Translations under genes and position numbers: made by a program
Part shown: positions 25,605-37,472 of the stretch, in pieces
Numbering within the stretch: the first letter of the stretch is position 1
Layout of the letters: every line of letters starts with the position of its first letter
The notes under the pieces: model-generated
The model's database searches: none
Seen by the model: the letters and a program-made list of their open reading frames with translations, nothing else
What the model was told of the DNA's origin: nothing
DNA from: a virus
Length of the DNA stretch: 64,000 nucleotides
Direction: 5' to 3' (one strand)
IMG/VR virus record: IMGVR_UViG_3300021512_000005
Span: 1-64,000 of that record

Positions 25605-25718
25605 TTAATTAAGATTTTTAAATTTCTTTAAAAATTTTATTTTTTTTAAATTTTGTTTAAATTTTGGACCAATATATTTTCTACCATTCGTATCATCAAA
25701 TATTACTTTTACTACCAT
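25605..25718 (-). CDS. 37-aa micro-ORF coupled to an ART gene (candidate immunity peptide)
   Basis: TAATG overlap; MVVKVIFDDTNGRKYIGPKFKQNLKK…*. Confidence 0.5.
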   Translation of the reverse strand: MVVKVIFDDTNGRKYIGPKFKQNLKKIKFLKKFKNLN

Positions 25719-27115
25719 TATTCTAACCTCTTTCTAAATTCTGCTGCTGTTATTTTACCTTCAGATGTATCAAGTATAATATCTTCAAGATTAAATTTCA
25801 TAATTTTATTTGGAAGTAATGTTACTTCTTGTTCAGGAAACCCAGAACCAGAAACAGCATAATGCATTACAACATTATTGAGATATTCTTTTTTTGGAAT
25901 TTTATATTTAATACTTTTTACTTTAATTCCTTTTATTGTTATAAATCCTTCCATTTTTTCACTAAAAACATCAGCCACATGTTCACTTTCACTCCAACAT
26001 GACATGTGTCCAATTGAATCAATATCTATTGTTTTTGCTTCTAATGGTAAATTAATAATTGCATTTATAAAACTTTCTCGTGCTGAATATTTTGTTTCAC
26101 CTCTATAAATATACTCATTACCATTTTTTTCTGCATATTCTTTTGCACCAGTTATTAAAAGATCTAATGCATTTTTATTTATATCTTTTAATTCAAGTTC
26201 ATTATTCATATATTTTTTTATTAATGCACCAACTTTATTCATCCCAAGTCCATATTCATTATACCACAAGTCAGTAATATTTTGTGCTCTTTCAATTAAA
26301 TAACTTTCTTCACGAGGTATTTCATCTTCTATTTTTGAAAAAATTGTTTTTGGTTTATTTTCTATTAATTCATTAGGTTTTTGTACTTCTTTTTTTATAC
26401 GTTCTAATAATAAATTTTTATTTGATTCTATAGTAGCAGTTGAATGACAAAATGCTTTTATAAGATTATCAGGATAAAAATTTGTTACTATTTTTATTTT
26501 TTCACCAGCATTACTTTCTTTTACAGATGGTGATTTACCAGAAAACATACAAGGATCATCAAGAGATATAAAATAATCTCCAATAAACATTTTATTATCT
26601 TTAAAATTTACTAAAATTTCTTTATTATTAATTTTAATTTGTAAATCACCATTATCTAAATCTTTTGTTTCAACATGTGAACGTTTTAATTCATTTTTAA
26701 TTGATTTTTTCACATATTCTTCATATTTTTCTTTAGAAATATAAGTTAATGGTAAAAAATTTTTTTCAATATATTTATATGCATTTATTTCTTCTTCTGT
26801 TTTTAAAATTTTTCCACTTTGTATTTTTTTTATAAAATCTAAAAGACCTTGTTCTATATTAAGACCTTCTTTTGTTACAAATTTTGAAAAATTTTTTGAT
26901 TCTGTTGTTGGAATATTTGGAAATGCTGCATTAGCAAATATAAAAATATCATTTTTTGAAATTTTCATAATTTTTGATTTATTAACAAAAAGTTCATCAT
27001 CATGACCAACTTCTGCTTCACGCCAATATGCCTTATGTTTTGGTGAAGCAGGTACATAAATTTTTTTACGACTTTTTGCTTTTGCAAGATTTAATAATGA
27101 TATTTCTATTTTCAT
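25718..27115 (-). CDS. Leader-bearing ADP-ribosyltransferase-like effector
   Basis: Leader MKIEISLLNLAK…IYVPASPKHKAYWR; R-S-E motifs IYRGE / SCWSE / PEQEV. Confidence 0.7.
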   Translation of the reverse strand: MKIEISLLNLAKAKSRKKIYVPASPKHKAYWREAEVGHDDELFVNKSKIMKISKNDIFIFANAAFPNIPTTESKNFSKFVTKEGLNIEQGLLDFIKKIQSGKILKTEEEINAYKYIEKNFLPLTYISKEKYEEYVKKSIKNELKRSHVETKDLDNGDLQIKINNKEILVNFKDNKMFIGDYFISLDDPCMFSGKSPSVKESNAGEKIKIVTNFYPDNLIKAFCHSTATIESNKNLLLERIKKEVQKPNELIENKPKTIFSKIEDEIPREESYLIERAQNITDLWYNEYGLGMNKVGALIKKYMNNELELKDINKNALDLLITGAKEYAEKNGNEYIYRGETKYSARESFINAIINLPLEAKTIDIDSIGHMSCWSESEHVADVFSEKMEGFITIKGIKVKSIKYKIPKKEYLNNVVMHYAVSGSGFPEQEVTLLPNKIMKFNLEDIILDTSEGKITAAEFRKRLE

Positions 27116-27128
27116 TTTCTATCTCCAT

Positions 27129-27287
27129 TTAAATTTCACTTGTTCTATAATAACCTCTATTAAATTTTTTAATAACTTCATCTTTATTCAGTTTTAAATC
27201 TTTAAATATTCCATTAAAATTTCCATTATTCCATCTATCAATTTCAATTGCTTTTTTAGGTGTAAGTCTATATATTATTATTGTCAT
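27129..27287 (-). CDS. 52-aa ORF after the kinase pair (candidate immunity protein; not in track)
   Basis: GGAGGT RBS; MTIIIYRLTPKKAIEIDRWNNG…FNRGYYRTSEI*. Confidence 0.6.
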   Translation of the reverse strand: MTIIIYRLTPKKAIEIDRWNNGNFNGIFKDLKLNKDEVIKKFNRGYYRTSEI

Positions 27288-27308
27288 TTATATTACCTCC
27301 TATAAATT

Positions 27309-35720: not shown

Positions 35721-35799
35721 TCTCCAACCTCATATTTTTTCGTAACCAATTACGATTAATTGCTTCATCATCAATTTTAATAGTTTTTATTTTTTTCAT
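35704..35799 (-). CDS. 31-aa micro-ORF coupled to an ART gene (candidate immunity peptide)
   Basis: ATGA overlap; MKKIKTIKIDDEAINRNWLRKNMRLENDKEN*. Confidence 0.55.
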   Translation of the reverse strand: MKKIKTIKIDDEAINRNWLRKNMRLENDKEN

Positions 35800-36725
35800 A
35801 ATTCATCACCAAATGATACATCATCTTTATAAATAGTAATAGGATTTGAAGATATTGTAAATTCTCTTTCACTGAATATATCAGATAAACCCCAAAATAA
35901 CCAAATATCTTTTTTTGGAAATGAGTGTCTAATAATTATTCCATCCTTCATTGCAAAGGCTTTTGCAATATTAAAACGTTCTGACCATGATGATAAAGAT
36001 GCTAATTCTACTTTACATTTTCCATCTTTATTTAATGTTTCTTTAATTTTTTCAGCTCTATTTTCTTTAATTCCACGATATAATTTTATATTATCTGTAT
36101 TTGGAAACATTTTATCTATAACTTGATCAATAAATTTTTTCATTGCAATAACTTTTTGTAAATAATTTTTATCTAATGCTTTTTCTTTAAGAGTATCTTT
36201 TAATTTTTCAATATCAATATCATTTGGTAAATGTGTATCTAAATTTTTTCCAGTTAATTCATTTATTGCTATTTGTAATTTAACAGAATCTATAAACTGT
36301 GGATTATCAAAAAATTTTTCAACACTTTCTTTAACTGAATTATCTTTTATATTTCCAGCATAAAATGTAATATCATCAAACATATTTTTAAATTCTATTG
36401 CACCTTTTGTAAGTTCAACAGGCACATGAATTTGATGATCTTTAAATCCAATATCTTTCCATGTTTGAAATAAATTTGTCCAATCCCAATCAATTCCTAT
36501 TTCTTTAAATTTATTTGAATATTTATTTAATTCATCACTGAAATCTAAAGAATCATAATATTTTTGATATTCTTTTTTAACAAATAATTTTTCTTTCCTA
36601 TTTTCTTCTTTTCTACCAAGCCGCTGTTTACGTTGAAATATTTTACCTTGACGATGAACTGTTACATATCCTTCATGTATTCCACGTTCATCTTTTAATA
36701 AATTTAATAAATTAATTTCAATCAT
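35796..36725 (-). CDS. Leader-bearing ADP-ribosyltransferase-like effector
   Basis: Probable start MIEINLLNLLKDERGIHEGY… at 36725; LYRGI / LSSWSE / SEREF. Confidence 0.75.
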   Translation of the reverse strand: MIEINLLNLLKDERGIHEGYVTVHRQGKIFQRKQRLGRKEENRKEKLFVKKEYQKYYDSLDFSDELNKYSNKFKEIGIDWDWTNLFQTWKDIGFKDHQIHVPVELTKGAIEFKNMFDDITFYAGNIKDNSVKESVEKFFDNPQFIDSVKLQIAINELTGKNLDTHLPNDIDIEKLKDTLKEKALDKNYLQKVIAMKKFIDQVIDKMFPNTDNIKLYRGIKENRAEKIKETLNKDGKCKVELASLSSWSERFNIAKAFAMKDGIIIRHSFPKKDIWLFWGLSDIFSEREFTISSNPITIYKDDVSFGDEL

Positions 36726-36795
36726 CTTTATCTTTATTTTCTTTATTAATAAATATAAAATCTTCAAATTGCCCAACAAATTTTTTTTGATCCAT
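36718..36795 (-). CDS. 25-aa micro-ORF coupled to an ART gene (candidate immunity peptide)
   Basis: TAATG overlap; MDQKKFVGQFEDFIFINKENKDKDD*; its stop overlaps the next effector start. Confidence 0.55.
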   Translation of the reverse strand: MDQKKFVGQFEDFIFINKENKDKDD

Positions 36796-37472
36796 TATAT
36801 TTCCTCTAATTTAATATTTATTTCATTTTGATTTATATTATAATCTATAACTTTAAATTTTGTACCATAATCAAATAATACTTCATCTTCAGATGAAAAA
36901 TGAGATAAACCACTAACTACAACTCCATTTTTACTTTTAATTTCCATATATATTGGTGGAGTATTTCGTGGATAAAGATATGCGAATGCTTTTGATAATT
37001 TTTGATTTATTGTTGTAGATGTAAAAGGTTTTATTTGAATTATACCTTTTTTAATTTCTTGCATAAATTTATCAAATTCAATTTTATTATTAATAGAAAC
37101 TCCTCTATAAACAATACCATTAAATTTTGGTGCATCATGTAAAAAATTAGATATTGATTGAATATCTTCTGGTGGTAAATATGAATTAAATATATTATCT
37201 GGAATACGTCGCATTGTTTTATTTATATGTTCATATCCTGATTTACAATAATTAATTACATTATTTATATCTTCTTTCCTATTAGGATTATTATTAATCC
37301 ATAATTCAACATCTTTTAATGAATTAATATATTTATCTTTATTTGATTCAACTTTCTTTTGCCCAAGTCTTTGCTTACGCTGAAATACTTTACCTTGTCG
37401 ATGAACTGTTACATAACCTTCGTGAGTTCCACGTTCATCTTTTGATAAATTTAATAAATTAATCTCTATCAT
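36795..37472 (-). CDS. Leader-bearing VIP2/C3-like ADP-ribosyltransferase
   Basis: MIEINLLNLSKDERGTHEGY… leader; Y…GYEHIN..MR, VYRGV, FTSTT, SEDEVLFDYGTKFKV. Confidence 0.85.
   Translation of the reverse strand: MIEINLLNLSKDERGTHEGYVTVHRQGKVFQRKQRLGQKKVESNKDKYINSLKDVELWINNNPNRKEDINNVINYCKSGYEHINKTMRRIPDNIFNSYLPPEDIQSISNFLHDAPKFNGIVYRGVSINNKIEFDKFMQEIKKGIIQIKPFTSTTINQKLSKAFAYLYPRNTPPIYMEIKSKNGVVVSGLSHFSSEDEVLFDYGTKFKVIDYNINQNEINIKLEEI

Follow-up and report, generated by a model that had tools for sequence, protein, structure and literature searches.

Enzymes carried in phage heads, known or proposed, include T4 internal proteins, Alt, MuF toxins and polyvalent proteins, and to our knowledge the addressing of stand-alone head cargo is understood only for T4. 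Here we describe a possible second address, found in a stretch of 64,000 nucleotides (the window) which is the first 64 kb of IMG/VR virus record IMGVR_UViG_3300021512_000005, a single contig of 73,039 bases. Between the portal and the prohead protease genes the window holds a block (25605-37472) in which ten genes bear a common leader of about 37 residues, joined to ADP-ribosyltransferases (ARTs), kinase-like proteins, zincins and other domains. An earlier reading of the window by a model (the original prediction) had proposed that such a leader loads enzymes into the head of an archaeal virus. The leader is well supported as an observation and the mechanism is plausible. On comparison with relatives, the block is rather likely to be a cassette array of head-internal cargo, in which the two parts of the leader serve capsid loading and processing, and the leader-bearing enzymes probably travel in the capsid, to be delivered alongside the DNA.

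The nearest functional system is that of T4. The T4 protease gp21 belongs to a family different from that of the window's protease, which is of the S78 (HK97) type, and the T4 cut motif is hydrophobic-x-Glu, whereas the likely cut here falls after Lys. In the account given in PMC7411985, the T4 internal proteins and Alt bear a capsid-targeting sequence (CTS), some 10-20 residues long, that attaches to the prohead core and that gp21 cuts off. As in the window, a short N-terminal peptide thus stands on unrelated head-module proteins including an ART, and the T4 cargo is described as entering the host with the DNA (PMC7411985). ARTs encoded beside head genes or fused to them have also been proposed to be packaged, in what PMC9503650 sets out. 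The present leader shows no sequence likeness to the T4 CTS, it has a second conserved part, a hairpin, which would stay on the cargo, its genes form one array between portal and protease, and the C-terminal tail of the protease uses the same address. On homology and, as far as it can be judged, on protease type, it would not belong to the T4 system.

Duda, Oh and Hendrix (2013, J Mol Biol 425:2765) reportedly found that a short C-terminal tail brings the HK97 maturation protease into the procapsid and can carry a foreign protein. The same C-terminal position is occupied here by the first part of the leader, the box, which is a likeness of position and proposed role and not one drawn from sequence comparison. 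In contrast to the HK97 tail, the motif also stands at the N-terminus of many separate cargo proteins and alternates with a covalent fusion of protease and scaffold. Encapsulins load unrelated enzymes into an HK97-fold shell by means of a short docking peptide, which may be N- or C-terminal, and they lack protease, portal and DNA. The encapsulin motif differs from the box, and docking of the box to the major capsid protein (MCP) would be an analogy.

The nearest gene architectures are the MuF polymorphic toxins and the polyvalent proteins, for which the relevant passages of PMC5576092 and PMC5512222 describe variable ARTs, peptidases and kinases tied to head proteins or genes and proposed to be packaged and injected. 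Most cargo in the window is fused neither to MuF nor to other cargo, the portable leader replacing the covalent link. Gene 29317-30771 is the one gene with the N-terminal MuF and variable C-terminal enzyme that define a MuF toxin. Each window protein has a single enzyme domain, and the two or more effector domains per polypeptide that define a polyvalent protein were found in a relative (P0090), which joins MuF, ART-PolyVal and a kinase. The leader is described nowhere in the literature or the family libraries searched, and the supplementary domain tables of PMC5512222 and PMC9503650 could name it. The specific leader appears to be new and the kind of system is already known, so that the value of the finding lies in the leader itself, its link to protease and scaffold, and the list of cargo. 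It would offer a second sequence-defined address, unrelated to that of T4, in a different lineage with an HK97-type protease.

Sequence and distribution of the leader

The leader has two parts, an eight-residue box, I-E-I-[DN]-L-x-[KE]-L, and a basic beta-hairpin that follows it, and its consensus reads M-I-E-I-[DN]-L-x-K-[LI]-E-R-G-[TL]-[HR]-x-x-x-V-x-V-x-R-x-G-K-x-F-x-R-x-Q-R-[VL]-G-x-K-[ED]. A hidden Markov model (HMM) made from five copies matched eight open reading frames (ORFs) in a six-frame search of the whole 73-kb record, with E-values from 3e-32 to 8e-6 and the next match at E = 2, which bears out the shared box-plus-hairpin leader of the original prediction. Seven of these ORFs lie inside the block and the eighth is 12607-13155. 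The box pattern IE[ILV][NDSK][LI] occurs 15 times in 139 gene-like ORFs, compared with 2.4 +/- 1.5 occurrences (largest 9) in 1000 residue shuffles, and 13 of the 15 are in the structural gene block, within 12.6-37.5 kb. Three further genes, the two kinase genes and 25718-27115, carry divergent box-plus-hairpin subtypes. They were counted as copies of the module on the ground that, in other viruses, the standard leader stands on the same kinds of cargo domain, in nine representatives for the kinases and in four for the 25718 type.

Among 118 matched stretches the leader has Lys at position 8 in 116, Leu at position 6 in 88, Gly at position 34 in 116 and Lys at position 36 in 113. The hairpin core of 27 codons is 85-100% identical in residues among six window copies, and 3-11 of the 23-27 codons for shared residues are synonymous rather than identical; just downstream of the core the DNA identity drops to 29-43%. 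The leader is constrained at the protein level, and it is the peptide rather than the DNA that is conserved. That the leaders are recent DNA copies was considered and rejected on the synonymous differences at conserved residues. In two AlphaFold2 (AF2) models the box region is disordered, with a predicted local distance difference test score (pLDDT) below 50, and the stretch that follows is a two-stranded hairpin at pLDDT 62-75.

When a profile of the eight window copies was searched against 1.84 billion cluster representatives, 116 proteins were matched at E <= 1e-3 and 25 at E <= 1e-10; at least four of these belong to the window itself, and L001, an IMG/VR contig closely related to it, contributes several others. 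The leader starts at or before residue 12 in 91 of the 116, between residues 13 and 35 in 14, internally in nine and at the C-terminus in two. The 119 flanking pieces of at least 40 amino acids (aa) fell into 49 BLAST cargo groups, 33 of them singletons, the largest group among the representatives being the 12607-13155 type with 14 pieces. Pfam models matched among the 116 were those of ART families, PI3/4-kinase (5), GNAT (3), MuF (2), S78 protease (2), GTPase (1) and an ATLF-like zincin (1), and include polyvalent-protein models such as ART-PolyVal. Fusions of the leader comprise MuF-leader-ART-kinase (P0090), protease-leader-X (P0097) and leader-X-protease (P0027).

At E <= 0.1 the leader had no match in Pfam, and at E <= 0.01 it had none in NCBIfam. 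In PHROGs at E <= 0.01 there was one MuF-centred family, phrog_6577, whose match to the MuF protein runs on through the leader. The leader was not matched in 50,697 GenBank phage records, searched at E <= 1 for the leader and likewise for MuF plus leader. The proposal that the tag is decoupled from MuF is borne out by these 116 representatives and 49 cargo groups, with a MuF fusion in two, and taken together the comparisons support the leader as a real, widespread module independent of MuF.

Gene contexts were available from 12 short metagenome loci and four IMG/VR contigs. Leader genes directly follow the portal in four of the metagenome loci (L008, L009, L012 and L013) and TerL in two (L010 and L011); the other six have only cargo-type neighbours or none, and a non-head neighbour was found in none of the 12. 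Tandem runs also occur, with six matches in L009 and four within 2.2 kb of L017. In L001, whose TerL and portal are 94% and 97% identical to those of the window, the array is shorter and consists of a JAB-like gene with a hairpin-only leader, one ART, a MuF-zincin and one kinase. A distant relative (L002/G002, MCP 71% identical) has four leader genes, two of which encode GNATs, a short MuF ending in a box and a degenerate hairpin, and, in the same position beside the head-tail adaptor gene, a leader-bearing homologue of 12607-13155. Wherever the neighbours of tagged genes are recognisable, they are head genes.

The expectation that leader homologues would be confined to head modules has to be widened in the window, where three box or leader genes lie beyond the block, at 12.6-13.8 kb. 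They adjoin the head-tail adaptor gene, and one of these positions is the one kept in the distant relative. All three are on the minus strand. Gene 12607-13155 encodes a helical/coiled-coil protein of 182 aa with a standard leader (13021-13155; leader HMM 3e-23), in the head-tail adaptor region. ORF 13148-13375 (75 aa) ends in the box K-K-I-E-L-N-L-K-D-Y-K-N-D, and a similar small ORF is found at 7536-7763 of L002. Gene 13375-13791, with a probable ATG at 13761, has a subtype-3 leader and a cargo of about 90 residues with homologues in P0106, P0104 and P0013.

Protease tails and the route into the procapsid

The prohead protease of the window (24635-25576, minus strand) ends in K-I-E-I-D-L-D-E-L, the box I-E-I-D-L-D-E-L being at 24638-24661, and the corresponding ends are K-I-E-I-N-L-D-E-L in L001 and L-I-E-I-N-L-Q-E-L in L002. 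Forty-eight of 64 protease homologues continue in frame into a scaffold domain and 16 stand alone, as in the window, where protease and scaffold are separate genes. Ten of the 16, the window's included, end in x-E-I-[DN]-L-x-[EK]-L, give or take one residue, and in another (P0097) box plus hairpin follow the protease domain. A box-type ending was found in none of the 48 fusions. The tail thus accompanies proteases that have no covalent link to the scaffold, which is the chief ground for taking the box as a putative means of procapsid entry. Moreover, the pattern of the protease tail was found in 74 of the 116 leader proteins and in none of 120 MCP homologues (41,241 residues).

Examples of the in-frame fusion of protease and scaffold are L004 184-1413 and P0241-P0296, and the arrangement resembles the protease-scaffold precursor of herpesviruses. 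In 15 of the 48 fusions the scaffold part opens with I-E-M-E-[ML]-x-E-L. The idea that the scaffold N-terminus is always the box was weakened, as most scaffolds read I-V-R-F-E-x-x-E-L. Two small ORFs also end in the box, namely 13148-13375 of the window and, in L002, a copy of the protease N-terminus that is 76 residues long, and they would fit a terminal docking motif. Between this copy and the protease gene L002 has an HNH-like zinc-finger gene (8979-9917). A prediction of the complex of MCP, scaffold and leader gave a score of 0.00, that is, no answer, and counts neither for nor against binding.

For the position of the cut, the MCP offers a comparison. Its K56 is invariant in 42 sequences and is followed by a near-invariant A-x-N-V-G, with a hydrophobic residue two places before, and the 55 residues ahead of it are variable; K56 looks like a maturation site. 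The L-x-K right after the box of the leader resembles this hydrophobic-x-K ahead of the AVNVG core, and the Lys after the box would be the most likely cut site of the S78 protease. The second near-invariant Lys, at position 36, is an alternative candidate. The start of the MCP propeptide (residues 9-18; 23850-23880) has a conserved E-I-D-x-x-S-L-Y-K, which is box-like and fails the box pattern.

We hypothesize that the box is an address, and that the cargo would join the procapsid core by the route of the protease, docking to the scaffold or imitating it. The S78 protease would then cut the address, of 8-11 residues, off after the Lys that follows the box, and the same cut would free the zincin from the MuF protein and leave MuF with a box at its end. 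The hairpin would stay on the mature cargo as its new N-terminus, where it may hold the cargo on the packaged DNA or aid its exit. After ejection, the ARTs, the kinase-like proteins, the JAB protein and the zincin would act on targets in the host, and the cassettes would be exchanged between related viruses. In its full form the proposal is put forward tentatively, as a possibility short of an even chance: a portable loading address of a clade of uncultivated, possibly archaeal, SU10-type tailed viruses, in which the box mimics both the scaffold start and the protease tail, a box at either end of a protein directs it to the procapsid core, the cut falls after the invariant Lys and the hairpin keeps the enzyme on the DNA until ejection.

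This proposal gives a testable rule (a box at either protein end, cleavage at Lys, and retention of the hairpin by the cargo), and the comparative argument ties the address of the cargo to the entry of the protease itself. If it is true, the capsids of HK97-fold viruses have a cargo-loading peptide comparable to that of encapsulins, which could be used for loading chosen proteins, and the exchange of injected enzymes as cassettes between viruses would be explained. In addition, the 49 cargo groups, mostly of unknown function, are candidate enzymes for host takeover or anti-defence.

A number of points weigh against the capsid-loading reading. Five of the 16 unfused protease homologues have no box tail, and some of the "unfused" proteases may be truncated gene calls on short contigs. 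The remaining fusions and the window's scaffold read I-V-R-[FLM]-E-x-x-E-L at the scaffold start, a weaker likeness to the box. The subtypes of the two kinase genes and of 25718-27115 are not significant to the type-1 HMM. Box and hairpin are also found apart, as hairpin-only cargo (33423-34358; L001 9027-9773; L008; L009) and as box-only tails, so that a division into a box that is the address and a hairpin that is something else is not forced. The fourth ART, the kinases and the zincins are modestly supported, by matches below cut-off, Z-scores below 8 and one poor model, and we infer the loading, cutting and delivery of the cargo from comparison throughout. Finally, the bearers of the box (protease, scaffold and cargo) are the proteins that would be expected as substrates of the prohead protease.

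This last point also speaks for the best of the alternatives, which we consider unlikely, namely that the leader is mainly a processing joint, which the prohead protease or the MuF-linked zincin recognises or cuts, with loading effected via MuF, portal or scaffold. The leader does stand between domains in nine of the 116 proteins, as in MuF-leader-ART-kinase and protease-leader-X, its hairpin is flanked by the near-invariant lysines K8 and K36, and a box-like E-I-D-x-x-S-L opens the MCP propeptide. Moreover, passages of PMC5512222 propose that a zincin (MPTase) domain divides polyvalent proteins into their units. However, a cut in the last eight residues of the ten stand-alone proteases would free few residues, and the 91 leaders that start at or before residue 12 have nothing upstream to remove. 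The restriction of the tail to proteases whose scaffold link is missing is better fitted by a role in attachment.

It is improbable that the leader is a hairpin for nucleic-acid binding or oligomerization on late proteins that stay unpackaged in the cytoplasm, directing enzymes to DNA, RNA or ribosomes. A strongly basic hairpin under protein-level conservation would suit such a role, as would the commonest cargo, the 12607-13155 type, which is helical/coiled-coil with a weak match to a small-terminase PHROG (E 0.007). Yet the genes keep to the surroundings of head and head-tail adaptor genes, MuF and the prohead protease both occur in fusion with the leader, the box is common to the protease tail and the scaffold start, and the box region is predicted to be disordered, as a docking peptide would be.

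A smaller chance still is left to the view that these are MuF-type polymorphic toxins with immunity genes, serving competition between microbes after release at lysis or delivery, with the leader as a trafficking domain; this view bears on the action of the cargo rather than on the nature of the leader. One gene here is indeed MuF-leader-zincin, and PMC5576092, in its treatment of temperate phages, describes variable C-terminal toxins together with small putative immunity ORFs. Against this, just one of the ten tagged genes of the block has a MuF domain, the bearers of the leader also include the protease, a short MuF and a conserved protein that is not an enzyme, and there is no integrase or lysogeny module in the annotated parts, no systematic search for one having been made. 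That the leader is a functionless trace of recent duplication, or a recombination boundary for cassette exchange, has hardly any claim to belief. Cassette content does vary between close relatives (4-5 in L001 against 10 in the window), but the codon differences at conserved residues and the drop in downstream DNA identity given above speak against it, as do 116 clusters that keep the peptide ahead of 49 cargo groups.

Cargo domains of the block

The block was originally described as ten genes. Ten leader-bearing genes are present, among 12 ORFs of at least 85 aa in the portal-to-protease interval, and two adjacent ORFs (31882-32509) of 119 aa (31882-32241) and 88 aa (32243-32509) are leaderless. 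Homologues of the 119-aa protein hold the same position in L002 and L012. The cargo of the ten comprises four ARTs of the R-S-ExE type, two PI3/4-kinase-like proteins, two HExxH zincins (one of them behind MuF), one JAB protein and one protein of unknown kind; all of these genes are on the minus strand. The catalytic motifs are those that had been predicted, namely the ART triads, two HExxH, two DRHxxN/IDNE and the JAB motif E...HNHPxGxSFSxxD. As regards the folds, the assignments hold for three ARTs, MuF and JAB, and those of the fourth ART, the kinases and the zincins hold fairly well.

Gene 36795-37472 (225 aa) has the leader in residues 1-40 (37338-37472; leader HMM 3e-32) and its ART matches ADPrib_exo_Tox at 1.1e-12 and ART at 1.9e-8, with YRG122, STT152 and EDE195. 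Gene 35796-36779 (leader at 36591-36725; HMM 1e-29) encodes a DRAT-like ART (DRAT 3.1e-6, 27 bits against a cut-off of 25) with YRG234, SxS/SWS at 261-264 and ERE304; its true start is probably the ATG at 36725, which would give MIEINL. Gene 34434-35720 encodes a Cys/His mini-domain of 43 residues, an internal leader from residue 44 (35460-35594; HMM 2e-31) and a DRAT-like ART (DRAT 4e-5, below cut-off) with YRG326, SSWTS355 and EYE407. The mini-domain (35595-35720, residues 1-42/43) has the pattern C-x-x-x-C-H...C-F-P-T-K, and in relatives it is a separate small ORF or stands ahead of other cargo (L001 11025-11189; L012, L013, L015).

The fourth ART candidate, 25718-27115, consists of a subtype-3 leader (~27008-27112), an unknown domain and the ART domain. 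It has no family match in Pfam, PHROGs or NCBIfam. With hhalign, it matched the family of the ART from 34434 (ART428) at E 1.4e-3, the YRG, S-W-[ST] and ExE motifs being in register (YRG337, SCWS372, EQE428), and comparison of the same ART (ART465) with the ART225 family gave E 0.43. Cargo of this type stands under standard leaders in P0081, P0041, P0096 and P0111. The triad of R, S-x-[ST] or SxW[ST], and ExE is found in all four candidates, and 25718-27115 is a probable fourth ART.

The two kinase-like proteins are encoded by 27309-28166, with a subtype-2 leader (~28056-28160), and by 28163-29317, in which a domain of about 95 residues precedes a subtype-2 leader (~28925-29032). The matches to PI3_PI4_kinase have E-values of 5.3e-5 and 2.3e-4 (23.7 and 21.6 bits against a cut-off of 27.1), and those to TIGR03843 have 3.9e-11, far below the cut-off of that model, and 2.6e-6. 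The longer protein has DRHEAN262 and IDNE279, and DRHxxN and IDNE are invariant in the ten sequences of the family, the profile of which gave weak matches to PI3K chains (E 0.02-0.2). Kinase cargo occurs under standard leaders in nine representatives. By eye, the N-terminal 95 or so residues of the longer kinase (29033-29317) resemble the N-terminal extension of the protease-scaffold fusion P0253, and this domain may be another mobile module.

The zincins are encoded by 32506-33426 (306 aa; leader at 33286-33420, HMM 2e-30) and by 29317-30771, the MuF gene, in which MuF (residues 84-195; Phage_Mu_F 1.4e-16, TIGR01641 5e-14) is followed by the leader (residues 219-261; 29986-30120; HMM 5e-31) and the zincin. 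The two are 35% identical over leader plus domain (E 5e-40, 32506-33426 against the C-terminal part of the MuF protein), and their HExxH motifs, HEFGH207 and HELGH378, respectively, are invariant in seven sequences. The zincin profile had only matches of E 0.03 or worse to solved structures, and a weak ATLF match was found among relatives. The model of 32506-33426 is poor (pLDDT 53 overall, 65-86 over residues 180-306). From this poor model the VIA comparison ranked PPEP-3 first (Z 7.7, root-mean-square deviation (rmsd) 4.0, 139 residues aligned), then PPEP-2 (7.3), anthrax LF (7.2) and other zincins, and Foldseek gave E >= 0.15. At residue 7 (30751-30771) the MuF protein also has a box-like K-I-E-L-S-L-I-E-K, which is present in L001 and absent in L002.

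The JAB/JAMM ORF (31079-31543, 154 aa) has the motif E8...H-N-H-P-x-G-x-S-F-S-x-x-D and no Pfam match. It was expected that every gene of the block would carry the leader; this holds for most, and the JAB ORF has no leader of its own, being cut off by a TAA (31571-31573) from a leader ORF of 44 codons with which it is in frame (31574-31705; leader HMM 8e-6, broad HMM 1e-20). In a relative, P0116, a Gln stands at the position of this TAA in a single intact leader-JAB protein of 212 aa that is 85% identical to the window's JAB ORF, and because of this we take a nonsense codon to have split the window copy.

The AF2 model of the intact P0116 has a pLDDT of 82.7. The first five Foldseek rows for it are JAMM/MPN proteins (5lda_A, E 3.4e-3, probability 1.0), as are most of the rows shown, together with RadC and Cap3. 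In the VIA comparison 18 of the first 19 rows are JAB-type (JAMM/MPN, RadC, Cap3 and bacterial deubiquitinases; Z 7.1-4.9), rank 9 being an unnamed structural-genomics protein, and Pyrococcus furiosus JAMM1 aligned over 106 residues at Z 7.1 and rmsd 3.5. In the Atlas the JAB falls in unnamed clusters, with leads of 0.80 to Prok-JAB and RadC.

The last gene, 33423-34358 (311 aa), was said to have a degenerate IEINL part, in agreement with which its leader is the hairpin only, with no box (34209-34358; leader HMM 2e-21, covering profile positions 6-45 only). Its cargo, of unknown fold, found no family, solved-structure or Atlas match; it has five leader-bearing matches, one of them the window's own. 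Compared with solved structures, the sequences of ART465, this cargo (unk311), JAB and zincin gave nothing at E <= 0.1. A boxless variant of the leader, G-R-P-G-L-[VT]-x-K-K-V-x-V-x-R-G-G-K-T-F-[QE]-Q-Y-R-W-V-K, heads other cargo at L008 3964-6638, L009 1990-3567 and L001 9027-9773.

Genome setting and host

The GC content is 21-34%. The late genes are on the minus strand, in the order small-terminase-like gene (41099-41620), TerL (39760-41115; Terminase_6C 2e-12), portal (37459-39090; Phage_portal 5e-33), the block, the S78 prohead protease (with a match to Peptidase_S78), a gene for a scaffold-like, acidic coiled-coil protein (23907-24404) and an SU10-type MCP (22861-23904; SU10_MCP 6e-25). 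The head-tail adaptor gene (14214-15152; phrog_442 3e-15) and a tail tube gene (10485-11468) lie further downstream.

The archaeal host named in the original prediction is a candidate. Eight copies of GGAAAGCTTTATAAG (with at most two mismatches; 0.37 expected) lie on the minus strand at 42470-50078, ahead of runs of small ORFs. This element is BRE/TATA-like and compatible with archaeal promoters, and it is the only hint of an archaeal host. On the other side, no sequence linked to a host came to light: when prokaryote genomes, one for each species, were scanned with the leader, no locus was confirmed and neither a provirus nor a host link emerged, and the MCP has no match among GenBank phages. 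One MCP homologue, the only one with such a label among the cluster names, is said to come from a bin of candidate-phyla-radiation bacteria. TerL matches are at most 30.5% identical and are spread over many hosts. The genome also encodes PolB, Prim-Pol/D5, a NucS-like nuclease and an ATP-dependent ligase, and these do not decide the question of the host. A tRNA-Lys gene (anticodon TTT, 61073-61148) is the only tRNA gene found in the window.

The C-terminus of the portal (37558-37623) repeats the MCP segment after the invariant Lys, K-A-V-S-V-N...G-Y-A-F-I-P-T-V in the portal corresponding to K-A-V-N-V-G...G-Y-A-F-T-P-I-V in the MCP. In L001 (9027-10008) the portal ORF ends just before this MCP-like repeat, and a JAB-like gene of 248 aa with a hairpin-only leader is inserted there. 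The last 50 or so residues of the L001 portal form a separate ORF of 82 aa.

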